DNA of 64,000 nt, taken from the IMG/VR virus record IMGVR_UViG_3300033978_000437. One strand, written 5' to 3'. The DNA is from a virus. The notes below the pieces were generated by a model. It was not told where the DNA came from. It did not search any database and worked only from the letters and a program-made list of their open reading frames with translations. The position numbers were made by a program, and so were the translations under genes. This document shows positions 14,050-33,995 of this stretch, in pieces. How positions within the stretch are numbered: the first letter of the stretch is position 1; the number at the start of each line of letters is the position of its first letter.

Positions 14050-15255
14050 TTAACGGCGGGAACGTTCTAGAACTTCTTGAATGTAATCCCGCACATTTTT
14101 ATTAGCTGCACCTTTTTTAGCTGCTGCTTGTTTATAAGCGGCTTCAACTTCCATGTTAGGGGCAGCATTAGCCATCTCTGGAGGAGCACCACCGCCCATG
14201 GAAGGATCCATAGGAGAAGCGCCACCTTCACCACCTTCAGAACCTTGGCCGGCCATGGCCGCTTCTAGTTCTTCGGGAGAAATGCCAAGTTGGTCTAAAA
14301 CAGCTGCTAACTGCTCTACATCGTCGCCACCTTCGCCCTCTGGAGCTGCGCCACCGCCCATGGCACCAGCCATGGCAGCTTCGTCACCACCACTCGCAGG
14401 AGTCATACCACCAGCAGAAGGATCCATCTCTGGAGGCATTTCTTCGCCTTCAGCTTGCTTACGCAATTCATTTTGATAACTGTGTAAGTAAACTGCGGCT
14501 TTGTCTGCATCGTCATTAGCAGTCTTGATGATTTCGCTCAAAGTAGAATACACAAGGGAGTCAGCAGCTCGTTTATCGAACTGACCACTCAATAATCCTG
14601 CAAGTTCCCAGCCAGCTTGGCCAGCAAGATCTACTGCACCTTTTTCTTCCATTATGTCAGATGCAGAGTCAGAATCTGAATCAGATTTGCGGGCTTCTTC
14701 GTCATCATCGTGGAATTCTGCGTTCTTTGTCAAAGAGACAAGAACACGGTTTCCAAGATCATTAGAAAGCTTGTGCAATTCTGCAGTGGACATAGATGCA
14801 TATTTATTGCCATCTAATTCACTATTGTCAGTGCTAGCAGGATGTGAAGTTTCCACATCGTCTTTTTCAGCTTTTACTGAAGAGGTTTCCACTGAAGGAT
14901 CCTCTCCGGTTGGTTGCTTATTCGTGCCAATCTGCAGCTGATCATCTGCAGCAGATCCAGTAGGATCCTTTTCAGCAGCCCACTTATTTGCAGAAGCTCG
15001 CTTCTTAGCTGCAGCTTTTTTAGCATTTTCAACAGATGCTGGGCCTTGGTCGGCCTTTACATCTGCTGTGTTTTCTGCAGAACGTGCACCTTCTGATGCA
15101 TCTTCTGTAGAATCATCCACGTCTTTCACAGGGTGGGTGGTTTCTCCGCCAATGCTGCCTGCTTCTGTATTAGCCGCTGCATTCTTTTCGGAATAACCAA
15201 CCGCCTTTAGAAAGCGATCAATAGAGTCTATTTGATTCTTAACTGTTGTCGCCAT
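14050..15255 (-). CDS. Capsid scaffold protein
   Basis: 401 aa, acidic and low-complexity, between protease and capsid genes; SD AAGGAG; many KxA motifs. Confidence 0.65.
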   Translation of the reverse strand: MATTVKNQIDSIDRFLKAVGYSEKNAAANTEAGSIGGETTHPVKDVDDSTEDASEGARSAENTADVKADQGPASVENAKKAAAKKRASANKWAAEKDPTGSAADDQLQIGTNKQPTGEDPSVETSSVKAEKDDVETSHPASTDNSELDGNKYASMSTAELHKLSNDLGNRVLVSLTKNAEFHDDDEEARKSDSDSDSASDIMEEKGAVDLAGQAGWELAGLLSGQFDKRAADSLVYSTLSEIIKTANDDADKAAVYLHSYQNELRKQAEGEEMPPEMDPSAGGMTPASGGDEAAMAGAMGGGAAPEGEGGDDVEQLAAVLDQLGISPEELEAAMAGQGSEGGEGGASPMDPSMGGGAPPEMANAAPNMEVEAAYKQAAAKKGAANKNVRDYIQEVLERSRR

Positions 15256-15296: not shown

Positions 15297-16775
15297 CTAG
15301 TTAAATATTCGATTCTGACGCAGACTTAACTTAACTGTTGAGGTAAAGTCATTGTCTGTTGCAGCTAGCCTCCACAATCCTGCTAGCTTATACATTGCAT
15401 ATTCTTTGGCTAGGCTTTCACCTTCCAAATTACATGCAGCTGCTTTTTGACGAATCACAGGGGCAGCCTGCCCCCGGATACAACTCAAGAAACTTCGGTC
15501 TTCAACCGCAGATCGATGAAGCGAATGACTCGCAGTCAAAGTAGCGGCGAATGCCTTAGAACTTTCATTAGCTGTCTTGTCAATAAATGAACATGCACCA
15601 CGTTCAATCTCAATAGGCAAAGATTCATCCGCAGCCATTCTTGTATATATTTCTGGAAGTATTAAAGCTGCAGATTTCATATGCTCTTCGTGTCCTGCCA
15701 ATCGTGCATAATCAAATAATGTTAAAAATATTTTATTATCTGCCAACGCAGCTAACTGTTTGCTGCATTGCTCCGAACCTAGTTTCGCCAGCCTTTCTAT
15801 AGGGAAAGCTGAGGTTGCTACCGCTCGATAAGTACCAGCATCTCCCATCTCAGCAAATTTTTCAAGAGCAGCTAGCCCATATCCTAATTTAACTTGAGCA
15901 GTATTTTTCTCTGACCATAAACCATTTCTTCCCGATTGATAAAGAATTACATCCAGCGGAGCGGTAGAGGCAGAAGCCAACTTAATATAATCTTGCAATT
16001 CAAATATGCCGGAATCTGCTGCAGCTTTTGTTAAGTAATCCGCCCTAGCCCCATAAGCAATACGATCCGCAGGCCGAAATACTCGGCTAATATCGAACCA
16101 TACAGGGTTAGGATTGTCTACATGTAGGTGATGCACATCGCTGCCTACTTTTACTAATCTAGTAAGATTATCCTTACAGCCACCTGCTGCACACTTTTCT
16201 CTTGTGCAGTATTCCTCCCTAGTCTTAGCTGCGTGTTTGCAGAAGGAACAAACATCATGAGGAACACGGCAAGCCATGCTCACTGGAATGTCATCTCCCT
16301 TTGCAATCTTTTCTAATTCTGTGTCTGCAACAAAACCACCATTTCGATCTGCTGCAGATTTACTAGCATTCAACGCACAAAGCAACTCCACTCGACGCAT
16401 ATCTTCGTTGTAGGCAGAAGCTTTAACAACCCCATAGAAAGGGTCGCCTCGTTCTGCTTTGTTTTTATGATTGCGGAAGAACTTGGCAAATTTAACAAAG
16501 GTAGCATGATGATCTCGGCAAGTGGCTTCTTTAAAACCATCACCATTGCGGTTAGGGCCATAAGCTTCACTAGCACCTAATGCAATCAAATGCACAGGAA
16601 CCTCATCTTTGGCAAACTTGACATTGTCTAACTGAGGTAAGAAGGTATGACTAGCCCGCTTTAAAAAATCTTGTCGATCATTACCAATCAACCCACGACT
16701 GCTCACCTTGATCGGTGAAACGATTTGTTCTGCAAAATCCCAACCAGACGGAGAAACAAATTTAATCAGTGCCAT
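15297..16775 (-). CDS. Prohead (head maturation) protease with C-terminal extension
   Basis: HLIALGASEAYGPNRNGDGF, FFRNHKNK and IPVSMACRVPHDVCSFC...EEYC motifs typical of HK97-type prohead proteases with a Cys cluster; upstream of scaffold. Confidence 0.7.
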   Translation of the reverse strand: MALIKFVSPSGWDFAEQIVSPIKVSSRGLIGNDRQDFLKRASHTFLPQLDNVKFAKDEVPVHLIALGASEAYGPNRNGDGFKEATCRDHHATFVKFAKFFRNHKNKAERGDPFYGVVKASAYNEDMRRVELLCALNASKSAADRNGGFVADTELEKIAKGDDIPVSMACRVPHDVCSFCKHAAKTREEYCTREKCAAGGCKDNLTRLVKVGSDVHHLHVDNPNPVWFDISRVFRPADRIAYGARADYLTKAAADSGIFELQDYIKLASASTAPLDVILYQSGRNGLWSEKNTAQVKLGYGLAALEKFAEMGDAGTYRAVATSAFPIERLAKLGSEQCSKQLAALADNKIFLTLFDYARLAGHEEHMKSAALILPEIYTRMAADESLPIEIERGACSFIDKTANESSKAFAATLTASHSLHRSAVEDRSFLSCIRGQAAPVIRQKAAACNLEGESLAKEYAMYKLAGLWRLAATDNDFTSTVKLSLRQNRIFN

Positions 16776-16787
16776 AGTTATTCTCCA

Positions 16788-17909
16788 TTACTGCATTGTG
16801 TTAGCTGTTTGATCGGGCATGACTAGTGCATTTAATACATCTTTAGCACTGTTGCGATTTGCATCACCTTGTCTGTAGTGGTTACGTATGATTCCGCTTC
16901 CAACGCCCCAACCACCAGCTAACAATCCTAGTAAACCTAATTTCCCAGGTCGTAGCTTCCCGAGTGCATTACGCATCCCCGTTACTTTAGAGGCTTCTAT
17001 AATTTCTTTAGCTGCTGCATCGCCCATGGCCGATTGTAATTTAGTGTTCAACAAACCTGGAGCTACACCTGGAATTAAACTTTTAGGCAACATTGCCCTA
17101 ATCTCATCAACGGTTAAACTAGCTGGTTTTCCCGTACTCGGAAACACCTTCTGAAATCGAGCAGTGTCTATTAGAGGGGGACCGGAAGTGCCAGCGGCAG
17201 ACCCCTTAGGAGGCGGTCCTAAAGTTTGCAATCTTGCACTTATGTTTTCTGCAGCTGCGGTAGGATCATATACTCCCTTAGCGGCTACATAAGCCCCAGC
17301 CCCACCAGCTGCCGCTGTGTTTAGCCCATGTGCAGTGTAGTTGACAATTTCTGGCATACTACTTTCTGCGGTGTTTTGTAATTCGTTTATTTCATTTAAT
17401 TGTTCAGCTGGTGACTTGCTTTTAATGTGAGCGGCTATTTGTCTGGATTTAGAAGCATCAGGAGGAAGGGCAGAAGTTAGCCCAGGCTTTTTTTCAAAGT
17501 GTAAAGCTTTGCCTAGTGCATCCGGATTAAATGCCAACCCAAGACCACCACCTAGCGCACCACCAGCCAACCCACCTTGCAATGCTTTCCAGCCTGCACC
17601 TTCTTCGCCATTCAATAAAGCAGAGGCTCCGCCTGCACCTGCCCCAAGACCTGCTCCAGCTAGCCCAGATAGCAGAACATTACGAGTAGAGTCGTCCATT
17701 CCGCCAAATCCGGATTTTAAAGAATCAAGCAATCCAGATTCTGCAAGCTTTTCTATGTAGTCAGCACCGATATCTCTTAAAGGAAAAGAAGTAGCCATAG
17801 CCTCTTTGGACATACGCTGAATATGCCCAGAGTCTAAAGCTTGCTTCCTAGCAGCCAATAGCTGCAAACCTTGGGAATAAGTAATGTTACTTAGAGTTAT
17901 CGGTGTCAT
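16788..17909 (-). CDS. Glycine-zipper membrane-type virion protein
   Basis: GLAGAGLGAGAGGASA, GGLAGGALGGGLGLA and two further hydrophobic Gly-rich segments; IEKLA motif; no Cys. Confidence 0.6.
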   Translation of the reverse strand: MTPITLSNITYSQGLQLLAARKQALDSGHIQRMSKEAMATSFPLRDIGADYIEKLAESGLLDSLKSGFGGMDDSTRNVLLSGLAGAGLGAGAGGASALLNGEEGAGWKALQGGLAGGALGGGLGLAFNPDALGKALHFEKKPGLTSALPPDASKSRQIAAHIKSKSPAEQLNEINELQNTAESSMPEIVNYTAHGLNTAAAGGAGAYVAAKGVYDPTAAAENISARLQTLGPPPKGSAAGTSGPPLIDTARFQKVFPSTGKPASLTVDEIRAMLPKSLIPGVAPGLLNTKLQSAMGDAAAKEIIEASKVTGMRNALGKLRPGKLGLLGLLAGGWGVGSGIIRNHYRQGDANRNSAKDVLNALVMPDQTANTMQ

Positions 17910-19266
17910 TTTTTGCCTTTACTCTTTGTGCTTGGTTGGAAATATTAGAGTCACTTTGAGTATCTTTAAGACTTCCTTCCATTTTAAGCAATTCAGCAAC
18001 TTCGAAAGGTTCTGTGTTGCCTATCATACGCTTGTTCAACAATGGCCCAATACCCCCAGACTGATCGGCTAGACGAGGAGACAGCTGAACCATTTCATTA
18101 TATTTACTTAGCACATCCTCAGGATCATACTGACTTAAAGGGTTATCAGGATCACTCATTAACTGAGTAAGTACTGTCTGTGCCCTAATCTTACGCAGTT
18201 CATTTACATGCTCAGGGCTATCTAACTTATTTATTTGGCGTTCCACATCTTTGTCATGCTCGCCACCTACGCCCTCTGCTAGATTGCGTGCTAACCCAAA
18301 CCCAGCTCCGCTAGCAAACATACCTGAGGCCGTACCCCCTTGTTTTTCTCCCATAATATTAGAATGGAGAGGCAAACAAGGTTCGCTATTAGAGTACGGC
18401 TGGTAAAAAGAAGCTGTAAGCTCTTTGGCTTCTGCTAATTTAATTTCGGCTTTTTGCAAAGCTTCTGAAGCTTTGTAATAGTCTTTAGCTTGTTTTATCG
18501 TGGCATCGATTAAGGTGTAGGGTTCTTTTTTCCAATCTGCTTCTTGTTGAAACCCTGCCCAACTAGCTTTGTGATCTGATGCTCTTTTTTCTTTCGTAAA
18601 CTGCCCTGCAACATGGTCCATAAGCGACTTGCCTACAGCACCACGACAGACAGAAACTGCGTGTTCTACTTGTGCTAAGGGCAAGCGATCTTGAGCAAAC
18701 TTACGGAAGTAGCTTTCCAACAAATGAAGCTTAAGGTTTAGCCTATCTTCATTTGCTGACTTTTCTCGTCTAGCTTCTTCAGCCATTCGACGACAGTAGT
18801 CAAAGTTTGAATAGCTTTTTGCAATTTTATTGGTGGCATGTTCTGCTGCTGCTAGCGGGTGAGGTTCCACCTCTGCTGCTGATTTCTCTAATGTACTTAA
18901 ATCCATGCTAAGCAATTGCTGTCTTGCTTGCTCTTCATACGAAGCAAAAGTAGGAGGAAAAAAAGATACTGAAGCAACTTTCTCTACCTTTTGCCCCCAG
19001 ATCTGATCATGAACAGTAGCGTAGTCCGCTAGACTAAAACTAGCGAGCTTATCCAGCACGGAATCATTAGCGTTCCATTGTGCTAGCTGTCTCCCAGTAT
19101 TAAAAGCGTTGCAAGCTGCTTTTAAAAAGCCTGGGGAAAACTGCATATGTTTAGCTACCTTGTGCATGGCATCATTAGGCAGCATGTTTTGGTTATCCAC
19201 CAAATCCACGGCCATTTTAACGCCATCCAGTAGCTGCTGTTCGTCTGACTTACTTAGTGCTTGCAT
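17887..19266 (-). CDS. Helical head-associated hypothetical protein
   Basis: Start moved to ATG 19266 (SD GGAGGAG); EKVA, EKSA, EKQG motifs. Confidence 0.6.
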   Translation of the reverse strand: MQALSKSDEQQLLDGVKMAVDLVDNQNMLPNDAMHKVAKHMQFSPGFLKAACNAFNTGRQLAQWNANDSVLDKLASFSLADYATVHDQIWGQKVEKVASVSFFPPTFASYEEQARQQLLSMDLSTLEKSAAEVEPHPLAAAEHATNKIAKSYSNFDYCRRMAEEARREKSANEDRLNLKLHLLESYFRKFAQDRLPLAQVEHAVSVCRGAVGKSLMDHVAGQFTKEKRASDHKASWAGFQQEADWKKEPYTLIDATIKQAKDYYKASEALQKAEIKLAEAKELTASFYQPYSNSEPCLPLHSNIMGEKQGGTASGMFASGAGFGLARNLAEGVGGEHDKDVERQINKLDSPEHVNELRKIRAQTVLTQLMSDPDNPLSQYDPEDVLSKYNEMVQLSPRLADQSGGIGPLLNKRMIGNTEPFEVAELLKMEGSLKDTQSDSNISNQAQRVKAKNDTDNSK

Positions 19267-20272
19267 TTTTTTCTGGCTCCTCCCGTTTGTAAACATCAAC
19301 ACCTGTATCGTGTTCCAATACGGGTAAATTAGTTCCAGCTGCGATCAAAATAGCTTCTTCTGAATTCAACTCAACTGGTCCCATATCATACTTACCAACA
19401 GGGGTTCCTTGATATAACTGTTCCCCGTTTTTCCCAATACTCCAAGGAATTTCTAACATCATTGCACTGACATTCTTCTCGAACTCATTGTGCCTTACTT
19501 CTTGGCTCTTATCCGATCTTTGCAATTCCATCAGCCTTACATGTGTGTTGAGCAATTCCATCACATTGTACTTGTTCACTTCAAACTGACCCGCTGCTTG
19601 TGCACTGCGGCGCTGTACTTGAAGAGTGAGCTGGCTGTTAAAGAACTCCGATAAATTATCTGTATTTAATACATGATTATTACGACGAAATCCACTAATC
19701 ATTACATCGCACACCAAGGGTCCGCCAAAATATGCAAAGAATTTTAAAGGTAAGTCTAACTGTGATCGCATAAGCCCAGCAGCGATAATTGGCTGAGATG
19801 CTTCATCACTGTCATGTGGTGCCTGCTCCACAAATCGGTCGGATGCGGGCAGAAGCACATTCTTTACAATCCAATCATGATGAGACAAGAAATCAGATAC
19901 ATTAAAGAATAATCGCTCATACCATTGGATAGTTTCAGGTATAGTTTTGCAATCATTAGCTATGCTCTCGATAGATGCCCCAGCTAGCAGTCTAGCCTCG
20001 ATCATCAATGTCAACTCAGGTTCAACAGCTAATCGGTCATACAAACTATAGGCAAAGTATAAGCCAGGGTTTTCATAGAGAAGCTTCTCTCTATGCCCTT
20101 CACCTTTGTTCCAGAAAAACAAGAACTTCTTATATTCTTGAATCCACTGATCATCAAATCGTTTACATCGCTCGGGAGGAACACTTCGAAGCATACGAAG
20201 TACCCGCTCATGCCTCCAGTAGGGGCGAAGAAATGGGTCAGCGAGGCGTACGTCCTTGTAACTTTTCAACAC
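19250..20272 (-). CDS. Hypothetical protein
   Basis: 340-aa ORF in the head gene cluster; SD AGGAG. Confidence 0.6.
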   Translation of the reverse strand: MLKSYKDVRLADPFLRPYWRHERVLRMLRSVPPERCKRFDDQWIQEYKKFLFFWNKGEGHREKLLYENPGLYFAYSLYDRLAVEPELTLMIEARLLAGASIESIANDCKTIPETIQWYERLFFNVSDFLSHHDWIVKNVLLPASDRFVEQAPHDSDEASQPIIAAGLMRSQLDLPLKFFAYFGGPLVCDVMISGFRRNNHVLNTDNLSEFFNSQLTLQVQRRSAQAAGQFEVNKYNVMELLNTHVRLMELQRSDKSQEVRHNEFEKNVSAMMLEIPWSIGKNGEQLYQGTPVGKYDMGPVELNSEEAILIAAGTNLPVLEHDTGVDVYKREEPEKNASTK

Positions 20273-21100: not shown

Positions 21101-23632
21101 TTAGTTCCTTGAAACTTCGTCTAAGTTAATGTCACCTTTATCAAATGATGACTCAATAGTCTTCTCTTTCAAGAAGAGTGTAATATCACCAAGAGATTCA
21201 AAGGCATTCCGTAAACTATCTTCTAATTCTGGAAGATCACTTTTACCATATCTATCTTCAAATTCTTCTTGATGCCAGTAGAAATTCATCAACAACCGGC
21301 CTAGCGAATCCAAGGCTGCCATTAAGTCGCCCAAGTGGCGGTCTACCAGTGAATCTTGTCTTACTGTTTTTAACATACCTGCCATCATTGAAACATCAAA
21401 TACTTCTTTCTGACCATCTTTGCCAGCAGTTTGTGCTGATTGCAGATTTTGTTGAAAATCTTTAGCTTCAAAGTTCTGCCAGTTGTCCCACTTGGATCTA
21501 TTTGTATTCTTACCACTCATTGAGGGTATAGGTGAATTCTTTTCCGTAGGATAGCGAGTCAAGGCAGATGTGCTTGGCCCAAATGTCTCGCTACCACGAT
21601 CCCCAGAAGTGTCCGTATCAAGGGGGAACGAAGGACCTCCAGCTAACACACTAGTATTAGGTGCAGCTTGTTTCTCTGTGCCATAGCCAGCAGCATACAG
21701 CACACGATAAATTGCATGCCCTGACTTCTCTGCTTTTTGCAGCATATCCATAGCAACTTTTTCACGAAGTCCATGTGTGTCTACCAACCGGCATAATGCT
21801 GCTTTTTTGCTTAATTGAACGGCACCGATTACAGAGTCTAAGTACACATCGGTGCCGTTATTGAATATTTTGAGCCTAGCTGTCTTTTCAACTAATAAGC
21901 GTTTGATGTCAGATAAGCCACCTAACTTAATAGGATTTGATTCATCGTCAAAAGGTGAACAGCCACACCCACCAAAGATGCTGGAAGAAGAACCATCCGA
22001 CAATTTGATGAACTTGAAAGAAGCTGGCACACGAAGTTGCCCGGAGACAGGTCTAAGTCTAAGGCCGCTCTTATCTTCTTTGCCAATGATTAGAGTAGCC
22101 CCATAATTACTATTACTATTGAAAGAACTTATTAGATTAGCACCTGCTGCCATGCCCCGCCTAGAAGGAGCATACCGATCTTGTATCTTAGGCATCAGCT
22201 CGCTACGTGAAGCTGAATAATCTTTATTCGTGCGAAAATCTACTTTGTACTCACCATCACCCATGTCCGTAGTTACACGGAAAGGCGCAGTAGCCGAACG
22301 ACTGTAGTTTATAGCGATATATTCTGCATCCTCGTCTAAGTCTGTGTCAGAGGATAAGCCGTCAAACCAATCTTTCCATTCGTCTTTGTCCGAAACTTGT
22401 GTAGCAAAAACTGATGTGCTGTCGGCATTTAACCAGCTTTTATTAGCTCCATCCTTTTTATCTATCCGTACAACTGTGGTCATGGACTCTGCTCCACGAC
22501 TGCTGATACCATTCAAGACCACCAGCATTTTGCTAAATTCACCAGAGCTTTCTAAAACAGAATATAATTCAGTTTCAGAGGGGTTAGTGAGGCTAATATC
22601 ATTTTCAGTGGTGTAAAGCTTACTTACTTCTGTATCTTCTCTACGATCTTTGATGACTACTTTGCCTTGCAGCAATTTCTCTCGGTCTGAAGTGCCCAAA
22701 TCAGATTTGTTCGTAACCACCGATGCGGACATATAGATCTCTAACTTACCTTCTTTAATGTGATCGGTAATAGGCTGGGGCTGGGAGAGCGTACCCAGCA
22801 AGGTAGTAGGCACAAGTGTGACGGTAGTAGGCGTAGGAAGAATGCTGCTAGCCTGCTTGATTGTGTTACTTCGAAGTTCTTTAGCCCAGCGGGAAAAACA
22901 ATCAACACCATAAAAGTCACTAGTAGCTTTTTTAATGGTGGGATAGCGTTCTGCTAAGTCGTAAGCTGCTTCAAGTAATGCCAAGCTTTTAGGGAGCACT
23001 TGGTTAAAATCCAGATTTGAAGCTGTCTTTGCTAGCGCCGCTTCAAATGGCACTTGGACAACTGCCTTTTGATCCAACTTGCGATTACCTGCGCCACGAT
23101 ACAAGGATCCGGCAAATTTTACTTTGAAGGCGGCAAGCATAGGAAGCACAGGTGCTAGCCAATGAGAATCACTTGCGTGCTTGTTGCCTTGGGGCGAAAT
23201 AGACAAAGAGTTAATGTCAGGGGCAATGCCTCCGAGCTCTTGTAATTTGCCTACAGAAGGTTCTCCTAAAATATGAGGTTTCCGGCTCATAAGATAGTTG
23301 ATCCAATTTTCTTTCATTGGAACAAATGAATCATTATTTTTTATGTAGAGTAGCTCGTGTCCTTTTAAATCACCATTTAAGAAAAAGACAGGAGCATACA
23401 ACCACTGCTTACCGATTTGAAAGCCAAAAACACCAATAGCTTTAGTATTGTCTTCATTACGATCAATTAGCTGGAAGCCCAACATATAATCAAGAAGTCT
23501 TGGTGCCTTATCTTTTAGATAAGCATAGGCTAAGCTAGAGAAAGCTTGTTCAAATTCTGTTTCTCCTCCCTTACCGCCGATACTAGCATTCTTCAATAAA
23601 TTATTTTTTCTAGACATTTTCATGAGCCACAT
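21101..23632 (-). CDS. Large hypothetical head-associated protein with six KxA motifs
   Basis: 843 aa; LKNA, NKHA, AKTA, IKQA, EKTA, EKQA. Confidence 0.6.
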   Translation of the reverse strand: MWLMKMSRKNNLLKNASIGGKGGETEFEQAFSSLAYAYLKDKAPRLLDYMLGFQLIDRNEDNTKAIGVFGFQIGKQWLYAPVFFLNGDLKGHELLYIKNNDSFVPMKENWINYLMSRKPHILGEPSVGKLQELGGIAPDINSLSISPQGNKHASDSHWLAPVLPMLAAFKVKFAGSLYRGAGNRKLDQKAVVQVPFEAALAKTASNLDFNQVLPKSLALLEAAYDLAERYPTIKKATSDFYGVDCFSRWAKELRSNTIKQASSILPTPTTVTLVPTTLLGTLSQPQPITDHIKEGKLEIYMSASVVTNKSDLGTSDREKLLQGKVVIKDRREDTEVSKLYTTENDISLTNPSETELYSVLESSGEFSKMLVVLNGISSRGAESMTTVVRIDKKDGANKSWLNADSTSVFATQVSDKDEWKDWFDGLSSDTDLDEDAEYIAINYSRSATAPFRVTTDMGDGEYKVDFRTNKDYSASRSELMPKIQDRYAPSRRGMAAGANLISSFNSNSNYGATLIIGKEDKSGLRLRPVSGQLRVPASFKFIKLSDGSSSSIFGGCGCSPFDDESNPIKLGGLSDIKRLLVEKTARLKIFNNGTDVYLDSVIGAVQLSKKAALCRLVDTHGLREKVAMDMLQKAEKSGHAIYRVLYAAGYGTEKQAAPNTSVLAGGPSFPLDTDTSGDRGSETFGPSTSALTRYPTEKNSPIPSMSGKNTNRSKWDNWQNFEAKDFQQNLQSAQTAGKDGQKEVFDVSMMAGMLKTVRQDSLVDRHLGDLMAALDSLGRLLMNFYWHQEEFEDRYGKSDLPELEDSLRNAFESLGDITLFLKEKTIESSFDKGDINLDEVSRN

Positions 23633-23945: not shown

Positions 23946-26900
23946 TCATTTAGAACTTTCTGCCCATCCTCGATACTCCGCTAGATCTTCATTGTTAGTT
24001 CTCAATTGGGATTCTAGTTTCGCCCTTTGTTCTGGCGGAAGAGAAGTATCTCGAAGTTGTGCTTCAACTGCCACAATGTTTTCTTTAAGCCCATTAACTC
24101 GATTACGCATGTCCGTGCTAAACAAGCCCTTACCTGAAGAACCACCCTCTCGCTCGTAAGTACCCATCATCTGCTTACGCTGTGCCTGTCTATTTAATAA
24201 CTGCTCCTGCCTTGCTTGCCCCCCTGCGTCTAGCTCCCCCTTAGCTTTTAACTCTGCTAGTTCTGTGTCCGCAGCTGTAACCGAATTTTGCATGGCATCA
24301 CGGAATTTGTGTCCGCCACTACCAAACCAATTTTGTTGGCCTAGTCTCCAGTTAGCTGTTTCATCCGCTGTATTTCCTTGTCTAGTTTTAGCGTCTTGTA
24401 TTTGTGCTTTTAAATCTGCAGTACCTTCTAAATTCTGCGGTTTAGTCAAAGCTAATTGTGCTTCTAGACCTTTTTGCTTTTCTACTTCCATTGCATTAAC
24501 TTGCGTTTTGTCTGCCACCGAGGCACGGGAACGAGCATCAGTTCCAGTTACTTTGTCACGAATAGCTTCACCGGCCATCCCAGCCTGCTCCCCAAGCATC
24601 CCCGCTGTCTGAGTTGCACCCCCAGCTATTAGCTGCGCATTAGCCACTGGGTTAAGAGCTTGTGCAGGGGCTTGCCATGCTGTATGCAGCCCATCTTTAA
24701 ACGAAAGAATGTCTCTCCAGTTTTGTGCTGCATCATTGGTTGTATTATCCCAACCTTTATCTACTATGTCTGAACCAACGCTATAAGCTTCCATACCTGC
24801 ACCAAGGAATGGCAGAGCTTTTCCTACTCCTTTAGTAAGTGCTGAAAATCCTTTACCTACATAACCTGCAGGTGCTTTAGGTAATGGGGGTGGACCTTTA
24901 GGCAATGGCGGGGGGCTACCAGGCACAGGTGGTGGAGTTGTAGGAAAGGGGGGCGGGCTTCCGGGTATAGGAGGCGGAGTGGTAGGAAATGCAGGTGGTT
25001 TAGGTGCCATAATTGTATTTTTTATACCATTGTAGCCAATTGGAGCAGCATACCCAAATGCTGTACCTGTATCTGGACCCGAGCGGGCTGCTGGTTTTTC
25101 CTCTGTAGGCGAGTCTACTGTAGGAGCAGATGCTGTAGGGGCACTAGGCTGGGAACCGCCACCAAACATATTAAGCATGCTATTCCACATCCCACCTTGG
25201 TTTGCAGCTGGGGTAGGACTGCTGCTAGGTGCATTAGATTGCGGGCTTTGGTTTAAATTTTGTTGTCCTTGTCCGCTGTTGTTTTGGGCACCACCCCCAA
25301 ACATATTAAGCATATTACCCCACAACCCATTATTATTACTTGTAGCTAATCCTTGTGAGGGTCTCGAATTAAATAGCTGTTGAAAATTACCACCACCAGC
25401 CATCCCACCTAACATCATAAGCCCCATTAAAGGATTTTGATTTAACATCTGCCCAGCTTGCCCTGCAAAATTAGAATTATTTTGCATCAAATAATTAAAG
25501 TGATTAAATTGATCCGAATTTGAGGTTGGGGTAGGTGTAGATGCGGGCGGAGGGGCTAAAGCAGAAGTGCCCTGATCGCCCTTTGCGTCAGTATCTTTGT
25601 ATGTGTCATACAGTGATGGGGCGGGGGCAGGAGTAGGTGCAGGCGCAGGAGTAGGTGCAGGGGTAGGTGGCAGAGCTGGCATGATATTTGGGCTAAGGTC
25701 AGCTGCTGGGGTATAAGGATGAGGTTCAGTATTATTACGAGGGGCAACCCCGCCTTCCATATGTTCTGGGGAATTTGACCCATTCCTTGGGGCTGGTCCG
25801 CCCATATATTCTGTAGCAGGGGTATTGGGTATCGGTTTAGAGACGGCAGGAGGCTTAGAAACGGAAGGTGGTTTAGAAACATCTGGAACAGAGTCCATCG
25901 CAAGCTTAGTTTGGCCAGGGGTAAAACGACCGCCAAAAAAAGGAGCGTTGCTAGGTGCTATAGGCTTTAATGCAGGAGGAGTAGGAGTTGCAGGTAGCTC
26001 ATAGCTAGGTTTAGGTTTTATTACCGCATGGTCTTTACCTTCTCCAAAATCAAGACCCATTGCTAAACTAGGAACAAAGCTTGTACCTCGTTCTTCGCTG
26101 ATAGCCCCATGAGTCACAGAATCTAAGAAACTTTTCTTTAAACCAGACCCATACATTTGAGTCATCCAGTCAGGATCATGCTGCATTTGATACAAACCAC
26201 GAACCATGTGGGGCTCAAATGGCGGAGGGTTCTTGTGTACTGGAATTTCATTGATTTCAAAATCTTGAAAATTCTTAAGCATAGAAGGTCGAATTTTAGT
26301 ACCAATAGTGTAATGCAGTATAGGTCGTTCAAGATATTGACCTAGTGCTCGCTTAGGAGTTAATCGCTGGTGGTCTTCTCGTGGTTTGTAAGTGTGCTCA
26401 AGCGTAGAGTAAGGAACAATATCGTCAGGTACATGGTCATCTGTTTCTTCTGTCAGCCTTACATGGTTAATAAGACCTCGAGCTAATACCTCTATGTTTC
26501 GTCTGTGCCCGAACATTCCGCTGTCACCCATTGCCTTACGAAACTCATTAACAAAATAGCGTCTTCCTTCGCCTACCCCTTTGTGCTCTGTAATAGTAGC
26601 AGGGTTAGGAATTCCTGAGCTAATTACATCCCCAGCCTCTACCTCGTCTCCTTTTTTTACTTTAAGATCAAACCCAGCCCCTACATAATGTTGTTTATCT
26701 CCAATGGTTACATAGCTACCACCCGCAGGAGCTTCCTCAATACGCTGTACTACTCCATCTTTTAGTGCATGCGCTGCCCCGCCTTGCATCTTCTTTGGAA
26801 CTTGCACTAATTGGTTTAAATACTGGAAACCGCTGACAGCTTTTTCTTGACCTGCCACTCCACCCGAATGTTTTGCAGATAGCTGACCTTGGCTAATCGG

Positions 26901-27878
26901 TTCACTTAAAGCATGTGCAGCCTGTAACCCAACTTGCTCGCCAAGCCCTGGAAGCTTTCCAGTTTCCCGAATACCTACATCCCTAGAATAAACACCACCA
27001 TCGGGAGATCCACCTACGAGGGCAGATCGTACTAAGATTTTAGATGTGCCAAGCCGTTTTAAATGATTCAGTATTTTCGGAGTAAGGGGAGTGTTTCGAG
27101 CATAAGGGCCAACAGCCCGAGCTAGCAGTGCTCCTTCGTTATCTGCGTCATCAGTGTCTACTACCAATCCTCGAATAGGTGCATCTTCTGCCTCTTCGGC
27201 ATCTTCTCCGGTTACCACTAATCTATGGCTAGTTTGATTAAGTTGTTTGTTAAAAAATCCGGCATCTTGTGTGGCAAACTTAGTTGCCATAATACCTTTA
27301 CGTGCCCCATAGGTTCCGGCCCAATACTCGGCAGGGGACAACCCTTCGCTGTAGCTACGCAGTACAGGGATTGGAATCACATCATCCCGCTGATCCGAAT
27401 ACAGCATGTCTGAACCTAACAAACTAGTTAAATTCATAGACTTACCGCGCGTACCTGACATTACCTGCATCCCAAGCGGATTCTTATTTAGCAATGCCTC
27501 TGCAAGTACTTGTTTTTGTTGTTCTGGACTTTCTTTACCAACGGCACGAATAATCTGCTCATTTCGCTGCTGATCTGTCAAAGATTCGTCAGATAGAATG
27601 TTGGTAAGTGTTGCTCTAACTTTCTGGCGAGAAGCTAATGCCGCTTTGCTTACTTGCAAATGGCGAAGACCAAAAGACATGCCACCCTGCTCTTGAGCCA
27701 TGCTTTGGCCAAGACCACTTAGCTTAAAAGAAATGTCTTTATAACGCTCTGGGTGTTGTTGTGCCACTTGCTGTAATAAAGATTGCAGCCCTTTTTTATC
27801 TAGCACACGATGAGAGTCTCTCAACTCTTCCGGAAGGACATCATTAATTAACAGTTGTCCAACGGTCGTATTCAACAT
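23946..27878 (-). CDS. rpoC: Phage RNA polymerase beta-prime C-terminal subunit fused to a 650-aa low-complexity/helical tail
   Basis: Bridge helix GLSPAEYWAGTYGARKGIMATKFATQDAGFFNKQL; trigger loop AAHALSEPISQGQLSAKHSGG; RRNIEVLARGLI; tail starts at KLA-MDSV (aa 658-664). Confidence 0.9.
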   Translation of the reverse strand: MLNTTVGQLLINDVLPEELRDSHRVLDKKGLQSLLQQVAQQHPERYKDISFKLSGLGQSMAQEQGGMSFGLRHLQVSKAALASRQKVRATLTNILSDESLTDQQRNEQIIRAVGKESPEQQKQVLAEALLNKNPLGMQVMSGTRGKSMNLTSLLGSDMLYSDQRDDVIPIPVLRSYSEGLSPAEYWAGTYGARKGIMATKFATQDAGFFNKQLNQTSHRLVVTGEDAEEAEDAPIRGLVVDTDDADNEGALLARAVGPYARNTPLTPKILNHLKRLGTSKILVRSALVGGSPDGGVYSRDVGIRETGKLPGLGEQVGLQAAHALSEPISQGQLSAKHSGGVAGQEKAVSGFQYLNQLVQVPKKMQGGAAHALKDGVVQRIEEAPAGGSYVTIGDKQHYVGAGFDLKVKKGDEVEAGDVISSGIPNPATITEHKGVGEGRRYFVNEFRKAMGDSGMFGHRRNIEVLARGLINHVRLTEETDDHVPDDIVPYSTLEHTYKPREDHQRLTPKRALGQYLERPILHYTIGTKIRPSMLKNFQDFEINEIPVHKNPPPFEPHMVRGLYQMQHDPDWMTQMYGSGLKKSFLDSVTHGAISEERGTSFVPSLAMGLDFGEGKDHAVIKPKPSYELPATPTPPALKPIAPSNAPFFGGRFTPGQTKLAMDSVPDVSKPPSVSKPPAVSKPIPNTPATEYMGGPAPRNGSNSPEHMEGGVAPRNNTEPHPYTPAADLSPNIMPALPPTPAPTPAPAPTPAPAPSLYDTYKDTDAKGDQGTSALAPPPASTPTPTSNSDQFNHFNYLMQNNSNFAGQAGQMLNQNPLMGLMMLGGMAGGGNFQQLFNSRPSQGLATSNNNGLWGNMLNMFGGGAQNNSGQGQQNLNQSPQSNAPSSSPTPAANQGGMWNSMLNMFGGGSQPSAPTASAPTVDSPTEEKPAARSGPDTGTAFGYAAPIGYNGIKNTIMAPKPPAFPTTPPPIPGSPPPFPTTPPPVPGSPPPLPKGPPPLPKAPAGYVGKGFSALTKGVGKALPFLGAGMEAYSVGSDIVDKGWDNTTNDAAQNWRDILSFKDGLHTAWQAPAQALNPVANAQLIAGGATQTAGMLGEQAGMAGEAIRDKVTGTDARSRASVADKTQVNAMEVEKQKGLEAQLALTKPQNLEGTADLKAQIQDAKTRQGNTADETANWRLGQQNWFGSGGHKFRDAMQNSVTAADTELAELKAKGELDAGGQARQEQLLNRQAQRKQMMGTYEREGGSSGKGLFSTDMRNRVNGLKENIVAVEAQLRDTSLPPEQRAKLESQLRTNNEDLAEYRGWAESSK

Positions 27879-29528: not shown

Positions 29529-32500
29529 CTAACCATTTAAAATTCGTACGGGATCGTTGATCGAAATATCTCCACGTGCATGCGCTCGTCTTACATCCTG
29601 TATATTCTGGAAAATCCTTAATGGTCGATCAGATTTACGAGAAGGATCTGTACCCATAAATAAACCACCAATGTACTCATTAGCAGGGGCATGCATTACA
29701 GACTTCATATCACCCACACTAAAAAGATTACGACTTGGCAATAAGCGGTCAAATGCTTCTTGCCTAGCTTTTTCCGTACTTGGCACATGATAGTTCATGG
29801 TGTCGCCATCAAAGTCAGCACCAAATCCCTTCACGATCAAAGGACTTACTTGTAGGGTATTCCCTTTAGTCAATCTTGGCCTCATCGCCATAATCCCAAA
29901 CTTATGCAAAACAGGAGCACGACTAATATATACAGGACGATGCTCCATCTCTTCAAGCAAGAATTTGCGTGCTACCGGAGTCTTATCTTCTAATTGAGTA
30001 CGAGCCTGCAGCATCGACATGCCTTGTCGCACCAATCTTCTAGTAACAAATTTCTCATAGACCTTAAATGCTTTATCTTCGGGCAGCCCTACCGAGTCCA
30101 TGTCCAATTCCGGATTTGGAGTAATTACCGCTCGACCTACATTGTCTACCGTAGACGAAATCAGTTTGCGTTGTACAACCCCGAACTTAGGGCTTGCACC
30201 AAACACATTTTTTAAAGCCCCACGAACATTCTTCTCTTGGCTTTTTGCACTAATAGGATCACCTAACCCAGTCACCGCTTTAAATGCTTGATAGGTAGAA
30301 AGACGCTCCGATCCCGAAGCTTCTTCCCCTACTTCTTGCTGCATTTTGCTAAAATTCTGATTAGCCTCAAACAGTTCTTTATAAAGGTGATTAGCGTCGT
30401 TAACCAATGGCATGCCATTGCTCATCAAGCTAACTGGACGAAACATTGGAGGAAGAACTGGCACTTTGGTCAGCATGTAGTCCGCAGGCTTCAGCCCTAG
30501 TTTATGTGCAGATTTAAAATAGCTAAGCTTACGAATTGCGGCATCTCGTTGCGCCCCTCGCCCTGCGGCTATCATAGCTCGAGCTTTAGGGATTTCTGCT
30601 TCTGGATTAAGATTCTCTAATGCCTTTTGTAAAGCTTTCGTACCGGTGCCATATTTCTCTAAAAATTCTGTACCTGCCACAATGCCTTCAAACTTTTTCT
30701 GTGTTAGCCCAAGCATATGACGAATAGGTTCTTCCATTACTGGGTTAGGTAAAGGTTCGTGCAAACGCATAAACGACCAACGAGTGCCCCCGTGTCCACC
30801 AGTTTTAGCCTTGTCAAATAAGCCACCATTAATCTCTTTAAGCTGATTTCCCCATTCTACTCCGTCTGCGCTGCTAAGCTCACGATCCCCAGCTAAGTTG
30901 TCAATGTCCTTGTCCGTCAATGCCATGATTTGAGTCTGCGTTCCTTGCTTAACCACATTAACTCCAGCAGATTGCAGCTGGGCTACAAACTTCTGATAAG
31001 CAAAAGGAACTTTAGTAACCTTAGGGTTATACCCAGACATGTACTGCATCCAATAATCATCATTCTTCTGCCTACGAATTGTAAAAATGTCCTGCAGTGT
31101 GTCCGTAGCTCCGTGAGAAAGTAATGCGTTGGCATCCATTAGCCCAATACGCTTAGAACCTTCAACACCACCTTTAGCCGGTGCATCTTCCATCGTGTAA
31201 GCTCCACCACTTCTACCTTGTCCTTTAGACTCAGAGGTGTGATGCAGTTTCATGAAGAAACGATTACCCGTTGCCACATTTTTAATTTTTTGATCTTTAG
31301 ATGGGTCTATAATGTCTTCTAAGTCCGACAAACCTTCCTTAGCTAATTCTTGCATAACCCATTGAGTCATATCTTTTTTAGTGTCAAAATCATCCACCTT
31401 AATAGGCATGCCACGCTTAGCTGCTATTTTACCTAGAAACAATTCAGACATTTGAGCTGGGTTGGTTCGGCTAATAATCCCAAGAGGATTAAGAAGCACT
31501 TCAAAAGGTTGTTTATTTGAATCATGGGGCATTTCGCTATCTGGGATGATGTCAGCAATAACACCTTTATCCCCATAACGACCCGACAGCTTATCTCCAA
31601 CCTGCGTTGGCGATTCTGCCTTAACTACAACGACTGGACCTTTCTTACCCATTACCACATCAGTAACAACACCACTATCGTGATGCTGCCAAAGTACTGC
31701 TGCGTCGTTGAATCCAGATTGACCCTTCTTATGCACTTTGTTGTATACATTTTCCTTTTGTGTGATCCCCAATACCAAAGGATCTCCAAAGTTAACTACT
31801 GTACCAGGCTTGACCACTCCTTGATCGTCTATGTTCGCTAATATGTCTTTTTTAAAGGTAGCTGGAAATGCTTGAATAAATTGTCTTTTACCGACTTGTG
31901 TTTTGTCATCCACTTCCAACTCATGCTGGTACATATGGGAAGAAGCTGTCTTCTTTGCAAAGCTTTCTGAGATAACAACCGCATCTTCAAAGTTTTTACC
32001 CTGCCATGGGATATAGGCAGTGCGAGCATTTCGGCCTAAAGCCATTGTTCCAGTACTGTCCGTGAAGTTAGAGCTAGCTAATAACTGATTTGGTCTAAAT
32101 GTGTCACCGGGTTTAACTGCGGCAGTTTGATGAAAAAAGGTTTTACGATTGAAAGGAAAATTATGATAAAGTTCGTGCGTTTCTTCTGTTCCGTCTGCAT
32201 TACGCACTTTAATCTCTTCATCCGTCACCGAGGTAACTGTACCTCCTTGTGTTGCCCTTAAAGCTCCCATCCCAGATGAGTATAGCTCTTCATAACTTTG
32301 TTTACCGCCTGTGTGCGGAACTGCAGACTGTACCAAAGGAGCTTCAGGAGAAGCTAAAGGTAATGCTTGTGTGGTCATACGAGATGCCATCACTAATCGC
32401 TGACCTTTTACCTGACTCTTCATGGGGATGACATTAGAAAGAGGATTAAATGCTTCTTCCATGTCAGGAAGCTCTAAATCAATGCTTGATTTAGGTACAT

Positions 32501-33995
32501 GTAACATCTTACCGCCACGCATCGCCACTACACGGGCATCTTCACCATCTTGGCTTCCGGGAAAACCAACGGTTAAGTCTGCTACATCTTGAGGAGTTTT
32601 AAAAGTCATTTCCCCGCTACGCAGATCCTTAAACTGAGCATAGAGCTTACCATCGCTTCCTTTACGAGATCCCCTAGCTAGATATGTGTCCACCCCTACA
32701 CGACCCGACTCGGGAGTACGCACAGGATCCACATAACCCAACATGCTTGACTGTACATTTCTGGATTCCATGGGAATTGCATCCATAGAACCAATACCAC
32801 CCTCACCCACTCGAGTAACAGACATTGTCTTTTCATAAATGTCTGTAGGATTAATTTCTTCAATCGCTTGCCCTAGCCCGCTACCGAGCAAAGCACTTTT
32901 TAACTGTTTTTCTAATGCTGAAGACGGCATCGAATCCAAATTACCTTTGCCTGACATCTTCCACAGTAGGTTACGGCGAACCCCGCCTTTATCTCGTGCA
33001 ATACGCTCTGAAAACAAATCTTCTGGACCTACAAACTGCTGAAAATGCAGTGCATCTCTATCATCCGGATCCGCTTCCTTTCTATTAACCTTTATCAGCT
33101 TTTTGGTAATGTCCATCAATGTGTCTAGTGTGACACCTGAATGTGGGTTTCCCAGCGTGCGACGATTTACCTCGGGATCCATTTCCATCTTAGAAAACTT
33201 AGCAAGCAATGCTTGTTTTTGTTTTTCTTCTGGTTCAGCTAGTTCTTTAGAAGAAAGAAACATGCCTTTAAGTCTTGTATACTCAGATGCATCATCCGAA
33301 TTGTAATTAGAAGCGAATAGATCTTTACCCCAAGCTTCCTGCGCCTGCTCCGAGGTAACTCCCATAGCTTTTAACAAAGGAGTTAATCCAACTGAAGCTT
33401 GCCCAACCTTAAGCTTAAATTTGCCTTTCTCAGGGTCTAAGAAATAACGCTGTGATACGCCTTTTCCAGGCATCACATTAACATGGGATTCAATTTCACC
33501 ATTGTTCCGTGTGCGGGTGTAAACTCCGGGCAGTAACCGCTGTTGATTTCTTAAAATGTACTCAGTGCCATTGTTAATAAAGGTACCACGCTCCGTTAAG
33601 TGTGGGACAGTGGCAAGAACTGATTTCTTGGAGGCTATCACTTGCTGTGTTGCATTATCCATTAACTCCCAAGTTCCTTCTAACCTACGACCTTGAGACC
33701 TACCATTAAGAATAGCAGCTTTCTGCTCCTGCTTGCTGGCGGTATCCCCATCACGATAGTTTACTCCAGTTAAACTAAGCGTATGTCGGTCATTAGATAT
33801 AGGTTGTACTTGCTGTGCTGCTTGCAACACTCTGTCATAAATAATAGATTTGACTTTTTTGGTGTCGTGAAATTCATGAAAACTAGGCAATGGAGCTGCA
33901 GGCTGCATTGTTTGTAGAAGCTGTGCCTGTTGTGGCACCCCGCCTAGCAACGAGATGTTAGCAGTATCAAACAAATTAGACGAAAGTGGAAGCAT
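29529..33995 (-). CDS. rpoB: Phage RNA polymerase beta subunit fused to the N-terminal (catalytic) half of beta-prime
   Basis: Beta motifs GTFINNGTEY, DPVRTPESG, IPWQGKNFEDAVVISE, GDKLSGRYGDKGV, LNPLGIISRTN, FMKLHH; then beta-prime motifs PVLPPMFRP, GRAVITPNP, SRAPVLHKFG and catalytic GADFDGD (29802-29822). Confidence 0.95.
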   Translation of the reverse strand: MLPLSSNLFDTANISLLGGVPQQAQLLQTMQPAAPLPSFHEFHDTKKVKSIIYDRVLQAAQQVQPISNDRHTLSLTGVNYRDGDTASKQEQKAAILNGRSQGRRLEGTWELMDNATQQVIASKKSVLATVPHLTERGTFINNGTEYILRNQQRLLPGVYTRTRNNGEIESHVNVMPGKGVSQRYFLDPEKGKFKLKVGQASVGLTPLLKAMGVTSEQAQEAWGKDLFASNYNSDDASEYTRLKGMFLSSKELAEPEEKQKQALLAKFSKMEMDPEVNRRTLGNPHSGVTLDTLMDITKKLIKVNRKEADPDDRDALHFQQFVGPEDLFSERIARDKGGVRRNLLWKMSGKGNLDSMPSSALEKQLKSALLGSGLGQAIEEINPTDIYEKTMSVTRVGEGGIGSMDAIPMESRNVQSSMLGYVDPVRTPESGRVGVDTYLARGSRKGSDGKLYAQFKDLRSGEMTFKTPQDVADLTVGFPGSQDGEDARVVAMRGGKMLHVPKSSIDLELPDMEEAFNPLSNVIPMKSQVKGQRLVMASRMTTQALPLASPEAPLVQSAVPHTGGKQSYEELYSSGMGALRATQGGTVTSVTDEEIKVRNADGTEETHELYHNFPFNRKTFFHQTAAVKPGDTFRPNQLLASSNFTDSTGTMALGRNARTAYIPWQGKNFEDAVVISESFAKKTASSHMYQHELEVDDKTQVGKRQFIQAFPATFKKDILANIDDQGVVKPGTVVNFGDPLVLGITQKENVYNKVHKKGQSGFNDAAVLWQHHDSGVVTDVVMGKKGPVVVVKAESPTQVGDKLSGRYGDKGVIADIIPDSEMPHDSNKQPFEVLLNPLGIISRTNPAQMSELFLGKIAAKRGMPIKVDDFDTKKDMTQWVMQELAKEGLSDLEDIIDPSKDQKIKNVATGNRFFMKLHHTSESKGQGRSGGAYTMEDAPAKGGVEGSKRIGLMDANALLSHGATDTLQDIFTIRRQKNDDYWMQYMSGYNPKVTKVPFAYQKFVAQLQSAGVNVVKQGTQTQIMALTDKDIDNLAGDRELSSADGVEWGNQLKEINGGLFDKAKTGGHGGTRWSFMRLHEPLPNPVMEEPIRHMLGLTQKKFEGIVAGTEFLEKYGTGTKALQKALENLNPEAEIPKARAMIAAGRGAQRDAAIRKLSYFKSAHKLGLKPADYMLTKVPVLPPMFRPVSLMSNGMPLVNDANHLYKELFEANQNFSKMQQEVGEEASGSERLSTYQAFKAVTGLGDPISAKSQEKNVRGALKNVFGASPKFGVVQRKLISSTVDNVGRAVITPNPELDMDSVGLPEDKAFKVYEKFVTRRLVRQGMSMLQARTQLEDKTPVARKFLLEEMEHRPVYISRAPVLHKFGIMAMRPRLTKGNTLQVSPLIVKGFGADFDGDTMNYHVPSTEKARQEAFDRLLPSRNLFSVGDMKSVMHAPANEYIGGLFMGTDPSRKSDRPLRIFQNIQDVRRAHARGDISINDPVRILNG

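Follow-up and report, generated by a model that had tools for sequence, protein, structure and literature searches.

A candidate head-protease site between the RNA polymerase beta' subunit and its exchangeable C-terminal tail in a lake-water phage

The phage T4 head protease gp21 has the motif L/I-x-E, and herpesvirus proteases of the assemblin fold read V/L-x-A|S, with the cut at the bar. The internal proteins of T4 are injected with the DNA and are targeted by N-terminal leader peptides of ~10 amino acids (aa); T4 carries no RNA polymerase (RNAP). In phiKZ-like giant phages (SPN3US gp245, phiKZ gp175, and 201phi2-1), the head protease reads [S/A/G]-x-E and processes virion RNAP (vRNAP) subunits and ejection proteins (PMC5694885). 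How multisubunit polymerases enter and leave phage capsids is an open problem that was raised for these phages. The polyvalent proteins of phages and conjugative elements include the N4-like virion RNAP (Iyer, Burroughs, Anand, de Souza, and Aravind 2017; PMC5512222). In virion preparations of the Salmonella phage Arash, gp206 (beta::beta'-N) had the highest spectral count and gp216 (beta'-C) was represented by 1210 spectra (PMC10585845). In the present study, we analyzed a window of 64,000 nucleotides (nt), the whole stretch of DNA under consideration, which reads the minus strand of the 178,753-bp virus record IMGVR_UViG_3300033978_000437 (CheckV completeness estimate, 83%), a record in which nearly all genes run one way. 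It encodes a beta'-C subunit of 1310 aa with a 650-aa tail behind the tripeptide K658-L-A660. This tripeptide is probably a site of the phage head protease.

The polymerase and tail are encoded by one uninterrupted open reading frame (ORF; stop codon at 23946-23948), as the preliminary description of this DNA proposed. The entire gene is recovered in Logan contigs from three lake-water runs (2020, 2023, and 2024) without a single difference or gap, and the junction is also covered by a contig of a fourth lake-water run. Since the three sets of contigs are identical over the gene, we concluded that the fusion is not an assembly artefact. The Pfam family RNA_pol_Rpb1_5 (PF04998) matches aa 179-364 with 67.7 bits (cut-off, 28.5), a match that was also recovered on the genome level, and the beta'-C part matches phrog_25354. 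The alignment to Arash gp216, an untailed beta'-C of 606 aa, has ~26% identity over aa 5-616 and stops at aa 616. The polymerase domain was previously placed up to ~aa 657. The tripeptide does stand there; however, RNAP homology ends near aa 616-620, and aa 621-657 are therefore a linker and not polymerase.

The junction K-x-A is kept in L002 (KFA), L003 (KLA), L004 (KQA), L005 (KEA), and P0002-P0008, and the residues behind it vary in relatives (KLA/EEP, KQA/DNT, KEA/STL, KSA/VQA, and KKA/EPI). In the relatives inspected, it lies 64-100 residues past a conserved DPDW block. Tails of at least 300 aa beyond this anchor are present in 93 of the 150 best homologs. The motif statistics refer to these 93 tailed homologs, which are cluster representatives at <50% identity with hypervariable tails. 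K-x-A is enriched 1.7-1.9-fold at 45-140 aa after the DPDW anchor, and in 13 of the 93, K-x-[AGS] comes 5-29 aa behind an FFGG[RK]F-like motif. Deeper in the tails, K-x-A is depleted ~2-fold (114 observed vs 234 expected, z -7.9) when a 60-residue local-composition control is applied. Among i,i+2 pairs, only L-x-L and V-x-V are more strongly depleted. K-x-G and K-x-S are likewise halved, A-x-K, R-x-A, K-x-P, and K-x-T are at expectation, and K-x-E is slightly below it (0.74-0.95). The retention of a short motif at the junction, together with its avoidance in the body of the tail, is the pattern that selection by a co-resident protease would produce. Several near relatives have a second K-x-A just before a Gly-rich hydrophobic stretch (SKAA/LPL and GKAA/VPV). 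The window has GKAL at this position, and its K-P-A lies 90 residues earlier.

The same motif is concentrated in proteins of the head-gene block. K-x-A occurs 15 times in a 492-aa protein (4.5 expected; A-x-K, 2), 14 times in a 401-aa scaffold-like protein (4.6 expected; A-x-K, 12), 12 times in a 471-aa protein (4.6 expected; A-x-K, 0), and 11 times in an 843-aa protein (5.0 expected; A-x-K, 4). Many of the sites in the 471- and 843-aa proteins are conserved in six related contigs. The K-x-A sites of the 492-aa protein retain their K and A in 82% of 116 homologous sequences, compared with 55% for its other K and 59% for its other A residues, and retain their middle residue in 52%. On average, a member of this family has 16.6 K-x-A and 2.0 A-x-K. 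In the candidate major capsid protein, a 34-residue leader ends in E-K-Q-A and is followed by V-D in seven of the seven phages compared. The upstream leader site varies among these phages as E-K-L-A/S/G, which points to tolerance of A, S, or G at P1.

The 492-aa protein is our candidate for the enzyme that reads this motif. Its predicted model (pLDDT 79.5, from a 53-sequence alignment) has T4 gp21 chains as the three best Foldseek matches in the PDB; these matches are weak (E about 0.1). An Atlas search gave leads only, namely, Peptidase_S78, S77, and S80 at 0.88-0.89. The only PDB sequence matches, to cytochrome c3, were rejected as chance similarity confined to a Cys-rich insert. His62, Ser166, and His215/218 are invariant in the family and appear to follow the order of the assemblin Ser-His-His triad. 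As a candidate specificity, K-x-[A/G/S] has the same P3/P1 format as those of proteases with the gp21/assemblin fold, with different residues. We infer from the model and the motif statistics that the 492-aa protein is the head protease, with a predicted cut directly behind the A, G, or S of K-x-[A/G/S].

The polymerase itself is a probable virion component. Its partner chain is an upstream ORF of 1488 aa that carries all of beta and the front half of beta' (Rpb2_6, 171.6 bits; Rpb1_2, 84.6 bits; Rpb1_1 below the threshold with 22.6 bits against a cut-off of 39.7). These two ORFs, each in a single copy, account for all of the RNAP genes found in the record, which is estimated to be 83% complete. 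They lie between putative cargo genes and the genes for the protease, scaffold-like, and capsid proteins, and this gene order is kept in six related contigs. Together, the two chains have 0 cysteines in 2798 aa, where 37 are expected. Considering, as indirect indications, the mass spectrometry of the untailed homolog in the distant relative Arash, the gene position, and the Cys-free chains, we infer that RNAP is probably carried in the virion of this phage.

We lean slightly toward the following explanation of these results: the 1310-aa protein is a precursor that is cleaved behind A660 inside the prohead, which frees the tail as an internal or ejection protein that resists the protease, next to a Cys-free RNAP carried in the virion. 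The polymerase, consisting of the beta::beta'-N chain and the 1310-aa chain, would be taken into the prohead, where the 492-aa protease of the gp21/assemblin fold would cleave the precursor after A660 and yield a ~73-kDa beta'-C and a ~66-kDa tail. The tail would persist through maturation as an internal head protein because it has almost no internal K-x-A, and would probably exit the capsid with the DNA and polymerase at infection. The fusion may thus be a loading device and K-x-A the release device. It is plausible that the fusion serves to load the tail together with RNAP, in which case the 1:1 ratio suggested in the preliminary description would be the expected one.

Several points weigh against processing at the junction. 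A cleavage product has not been observed in any member of the clade, and the assignment of the protease is a prediction from motif statistics and a modelled fold. The folded polymerase part itself has three K-x-A (at aa 78, 200, and 509); therefore, the motif alone cannot be sufficient for cutting. In this tail alone, one K-x-A was found against 3.6 expected, which is not significant, and the signal exists at the family level. Searches of Pfam, BFVD, and Atlas and an analysis of hydropathy gave no family, fold, or transmembrane assignment for the tail. The Arash virion preparation listed 116 proteins, including metabolic enzymes, and contamination is therefore possible (PMC10585845). Moreover, polymerase packaging does not require the tail, since it is lacking from gp216 of Arash (606 aa) and from the beta'-C of one relative (654 aa; P0198 contig).

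The position behind beta'-C is variable among relatives. In distant relatives, it is filled by NUDIX, DUF5661, DUF4269, SNF2 with Helicase_C, or AAA_18/33 (kinase-like) modules, and K-x-A stands between the modules. The slot is empty in Arash gp216 and in the 654-aa beta'-C. Therefore, the question raised in the preliminary description of whether the tail varies may be answered in the affirmative, with other modules or nothing in the same slot. A separate tail gene was also considered there; one distant relative (L007) has a separate 734-aa low-complexity ORF after a 918-aa beta'-C, and apparent stand-alone tail genes were not upheld. The tail thus does not belong to the polymerase; it is an accessory payload that can be exchanged, and in this clade of phages the site behind beta'-C serves as a variable cargo slot. 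We tentatively extend this to a proposal that falls somewhat short of an even chance: across a large clade of uncultured phages, the C terminus of beta'-C may be a general hitch-hiking slot, in which modules joined by K-x-A are brought into the capsid by the polymerase, cut free by a gp21/assemblin-fold protease of a so far undescribed specificity (Lys at P3 and a small residue at P1), and delivered to the host with the DNA, the tail being a payload with a new activity.

The tail of the 1310-aa protein is of mixed composition, and all of the repeats noted previously are present: PAPTPAPAP at aa 740, FPTTPPPxPGSPPP at aa 964 and 978 (24906-24989), and, in a Q/N/G/M-rich stretch, (L/M)WxxMLNMFGGG at aa 852 and 897 (25290-25325 and 25155-25190). 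A segment described as hydrophobic (GKALPFLGAGMEAY) is present at aa 1019; however, it is not of transmembrane grade. The highest 19-residue Kyte-Doolittle mean in the tail is 0.94, below the usual values of transmembrane helices. The suggested membrane or channel role consequently receives no support from hydropathy, and no family or structure match indicates a channel or a condensate-forming protein. The tail middle (aa 661 to ~1000) had no similarity among the 150 homologs, while the last ~300 residues are 33-83% identical to P0002, P0003, P0004, P0016, and others. The AlphaFold2 model of this C-terminal domain is all-helical and poor overall (mean pLDDT 58.7), with values of 70-86 only in the last ~120 aa; the end of the tail, described earlier as a coiled coil, is thus at least helical in the model. 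No match was obtained for the C-terminal domain in BFVD with Foldseek at E 0.001 or better, Atlas scores were at the chance level (<=0.84), and Pfam gave no family for the tail except a sub-threshold match to CCDC-167. Among GenBank phages, there was no close DNA relative and no protein match to the tail, and an IMG/VR pattern scan using the tail found no relative.

The main rival to processing is an uncut fusion, in which the tail stays on beta'-C for encapsidation, injection, or tethering, as do the terminal domains of the N4 vRNAP, and K-x-A is kept for another reason. The N4 enzyme is packaged unprocessed, and its terminal regions are needed for injection and encapsidation (PMC5512222). 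The fact that no cut has been observed here and the K-x-A in the folded RNAP part, which presumably remain uncut, also agree with this explanation. Nevertheless, the junction obeys the rule of conserved K and A with a variable middle residue that is found at the sites of the capsid leader, the scaffold-like protein, and the gp21-fold protein, and the tails avoid K-x-[A/G/S], which is expected only where the motif is read destructively. Nudix, SNF2, and kinase-like enzymes behind beta'-C with K-x-A between them are also unlikely to function as one polymerase-attached chain. We regard an uncut fusion as unlikely.

A disposable pro-domain ranks next. The tail would then be a capsid-targeting or scaffold-like propeptide that is cut off and lost or degraded, similar to the propeptide of 275 aa at the N terminus of beta in the 201phi2-1 vRNAP (PMC5694885). 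This agrees with the dispensability of the tail in some relatives and with its low-complexity, scaffold-like composition. However, the proteins apparently bound for destruction (the scaffold-like, 492-aa, and 471-aa proteins) are rich in K-x-A, whereas the tails are depleted ~2-fold. The conserved ~300-aa domain at the end of the tail and the enzymes in the same slot of relatives also argue against a disposable segment, and we consider this explanation to be rather improbable.

It is very unlikely that the polymerase of this phage is not packaged and that its tail is a disordered or coiled-coil extension with a role in the cytoplasm, for example, in organizing transcription foci. Since a sole RNAP set was found in the record, this polymerase must also be active in the cytoplasm at late stages, and the Q/N/G/M-rich composition fits such an extension. 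In contrast, the gene is located in the head-gene block, both RNAP chains are Cys-free, and the junction has the same motif logic as the leader of the capsid protein. Virion mass spectrometry of Arash also shows RNAP chains.

The preliminary description regarded the sequence K-L-A/MDSV as a mirror of K-S-A/MDSV in a 1292-aa protein. Both strings are present, and 14 of 15 nt over A-M-D-S-V are identical between the two genes, with unrelated flanks. However, the match is not beyond chance. Shuffled versions of both proteins had an exact 5-mer in common in 83% of trials and had a common gapped 6-of-7 word in 12% of them, and 118 such words are common to different proteins of this proteome. In L002, the closest relative found (89% identity in the protease gene), the junction reads K-F-A and then A-D-T, and M661 is thus not conserved in this protein, either as a start codon or within a signal. 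We therefore rejected the AMDSV identity as evidence by itself, being within the chance of shuffled proteins and not conserved. Of the processing-type site proposed at the polymerase/tail boundary, the K-x-A half is retained by its conservation and by the avoidance in tails, and the MDSV half carries no weight.

Orthologs of the 1292-aa protein have a body that always starts with MDSVYSPQQ right after K-[S/A]-A, and one has a leader of just 21 residues. Whole N-terminal modules are gained or lost at K-x-A joints among these orthologs (P0276-P0278, P0303, P0308, and P0316). Hundreds of other phage proteins combine DUF6321, a domain of this protein, with PF18760, PF18814, PF18013 (phage tail lysozyme), PF00293 (NUDIX), and PF13946 in fusions. 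K-V-A followed by M-D occurs a third time at aa 625-629 of the 843-aa protein, and K-x-A-M-D occurs 3 times in the proteome against ~0.4 expected. The site in the 843-aa protein is K-A-A/M-D in L002, and its K is lost in L005 and L006.

An internal translation start at M661, or a relic of a separate gene with the AMDSV identity as a duplicated gene start, would account for the 15-nt match and for the separate low-complexity ORF in L007, but was rejected as having almost no chance of being correct: the residue at this position is not conserved (Ala in the closest relative and E, D, Q, V, or S in others), the regions around the match are unrelated, and a Shine-Dalgarno-like sequence was not visible by eye in the ~15 nt before the ATG, no systematic scan having been run. 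Five short proteins that match only the tail end are all on contigs of 1.3-3.3 kb and, hence, cannot show a separate tail gene. An apparent separate gene in L005:1-3504 was also rejected. The split is a scaffold gap of N inside a long PAATPK repeat of the beta'-C tail; the repeat broke the assembly and the gene caller restarted after the gap, which produced a false 'separate' gene of 519 aa.

The features discussed are listed in Table 1.

Table 1. Positions of the features within the window and the basis of each assignment.
Feature	Position	Strand	Basis
Whole beta'-C and tail precursor ORF, 1310 aa	23946..27878	-	sequence; lake-water contigs
beta'-C half, aa 1 to ~620, multisubunit-type RNAP, no Cys	26019..27878	-	Pfam, phrog_25354, Arash gp216 alignment
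Pro-rich linker, aa 621-657, ends FFGGRF (25923-25940)	25908..26018	-	sequence
K658-L-A660, candidate head-protease site, predicted cut after A660, then MDSV	25899..25907	-	motif conservation
Hypervariable low-complexity tail part, aa 661-1003	24870..25898	-	no similarity to any of 150 homologs
K928-P-A930, sole other K-x-A in the tail, possible second site, Pro at P2	25089..25097	-	sequence
Conserved helical tail C-domain, aa 1004-1310 (GWDNTT..., ETANW..GGHKFRDA, ..YRGWA)	23949..24869	-	homologs; AlphaFold2
1488-aa beta::beta'-N fusion, partner chain, no Cys	29529..33995	-	Pfam Rpb2_6, Rpb1_2, Rpb1_1
492-aa protein, N-domain with predicted T4 gp21/assemblin prohead-protease fold, helical C-domain, 15 K-x-A	15297..16775	-	predicted model
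Candidate major capsid protein, 315 aa, with EKL[A/S/G] and EKQA (12815-12823) in its leader	11969..12916	-	phrog_2522 (weak), leader motif
401-aa acidic scaffold-like protein, 14 K-x-A	14050..15255	-	sequence counts
471-aa protein, 12 K-x-A, between RNAP and protease	17887..19302	-	sequence counts
843-aa protein, 11 K-x-A, between RNAP and protease	21101..23632	-	sequence counts
1292-aa modular protein (DUF5661, DUF6321, low-complexity body); K304-S-A306 then MDSV at 58588-58596	55627..59505	-	Pfam, sequence

Searches of PHROGs and Pfam with 30 neighbouring ORFs were almost all blank. The 492-aa protein has 12 Cys, and the invariant C176, C179, C190, C195, and C200 cluster within aa 169-200, in the protease domain; this cluster is possibly a metal site. 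Both RNAP chains and the capsid, scaffold-like, 373-aa, and 1731-aa proteins in the neighbourhood have no Cys. The N-terminal 290 aa of the 471-aa protein resemble a string of short peptides. Outside the window, far from the head block and on the rarely used strand, a 392-aa ORF (genome C1:17880-19058, minus) has 16 K-x-A against 4.2 expected, with a spacing of 8-36 residues. A clear sigma factor was not found in the genome, in contrast to Arash with its gp10; a Sigma70_r2 match at genome C1:63725-63853, outside the window, is sub-threshold (17 bits) with a TAA stop inside. Among the 27 longest beta'-C homologs, LAGLIDADG_3 was detected in 15, Hom_end_hint in 10, and Hint in 8. The homologs with inteins include P0026, P0035, P0044, P0051, and P0054, and the DPDW block is near aa 950 instead of 568 in them because the inteins sit inside the polymerase part. 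This phage recurs in ~20 lake-water or runoff metagenome runs from 2020-2024, which hold 84-100% of the gene's sampled words; some may be the source sample. No RNA or protein runs were listed among the runs holding this phage.

If K-x-[A/G/S] is the code of the head protease, the packaged proteome and mature ends of hundreds of uncultured lake and soil phages may be listed from sequence only, and injected payloads, such as the Nudix, SNF2, and kinase-like modules, may become recognizable in the same manner. It would also represent a third specificity class for the gp21/assemblin protease fold, beside x-E and x-A|S. The avoidance of the motif in tails provides a test that is applicable to other phages as well. 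Regarding the passage of multisubunit polymerases through capsids, this clade offers a simpler case, with two chains, one of which has a detachable, exchangeable module.

The layout of the RNAP genes resembles that of Arash, in which gp206 and gp216 are a beta::beta'-N fusion and a separate beta'-C adjoining structural genes (PMC10585845). However, gp216 ends where the tail begins here. The same layout occurs in the metagenomic mReC clade (Weinheimer and Aylward 2020; PMC7481178), and the present record, a possible member, is likewise a Caudovirales contig encoding beta and beta' that are recognizable with cellular profiles. The available parts of the two reports do not mention tails, K-x-A, or processing for the RNAPs of Arash (PMC10585845) or mReC (PMC7481178).

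Polyvalent proteins also fuse a polymerase module needed right after DNA entry with variable, unrelated modules; the genes are similarly among late or virion genes, and delivery with the DNA and possibly processing are predicted. The 1310-aa protein has one recognized domain and a family-less tail, while its relatives combine beta'-C with NUDIX, SNF2, AAA_18/33, or DUF5661. Polyvalent proteins usually have their own zincin-like peptidase, whereas the joints here carry the motif of a separate, putative head protease. We describe the protein as working like a polyvalent protein, but do not file it as one because no peptidase (zincin-like MPTase) or MuF profile was found in it down to E 0.01. The N4 virion RNAP has a single-subunit, T7-like core and is packaged uncut, in contrast to the beta'-type core of a multisubunit enzyme in this phage.

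In T4 head maturation (gp21; the leaders of IPI-III and Alt; gp23 and gp22), as here, one motif is common to the capsid leader, scaffold, protease, and internal proteins. The motif is L/I-x-E in T4 and K-x-[A/G/S] in the present phage, in which a large enzyme subunit would act as the carrier, with the part to be released at its C terminus.

A close parallel is with phiKZ-like phages, whose heads carry and eject a multisubunit RNAP, as is probable here, and whose gp21-like head protease reads a short P3-x-P1 motif, as is predicted here. Similar to 201phi2-1 beta, a vRNAP subunit appears to be made with a long extension that would be removed at such a motif, and extra sites lie in parts destined for clearance. 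In contrast, the motif is [A/S/G]-x-E in those phages and K-x-[A/G/S] in this one; the extension is an N-terminal propeptide of 275 aa in 201phi2-1 and a C-terminal, motif-avoiding module of 650 aa with a conserved domain here; phiKZ-like phages have two RNAP sets in 4-5 chains, whereas one set in two chains was found here; and cleavage was measured by mass spectrometry there and is predicted from motifs here. Earlier work has described head cargo that is processed at short motifs, a removable extension on a vRNAP subunit, and polyvalent proteins that contain a polymerase (PMC5694885, PMC5512222). The new elements of the present system are a carrier that is half of the beta' of a multisubunit enzyme, a C-terminal, exchangeable, and motif-avoiding candidate payload, and a putative cleavage motif of the Lys-x-small type.

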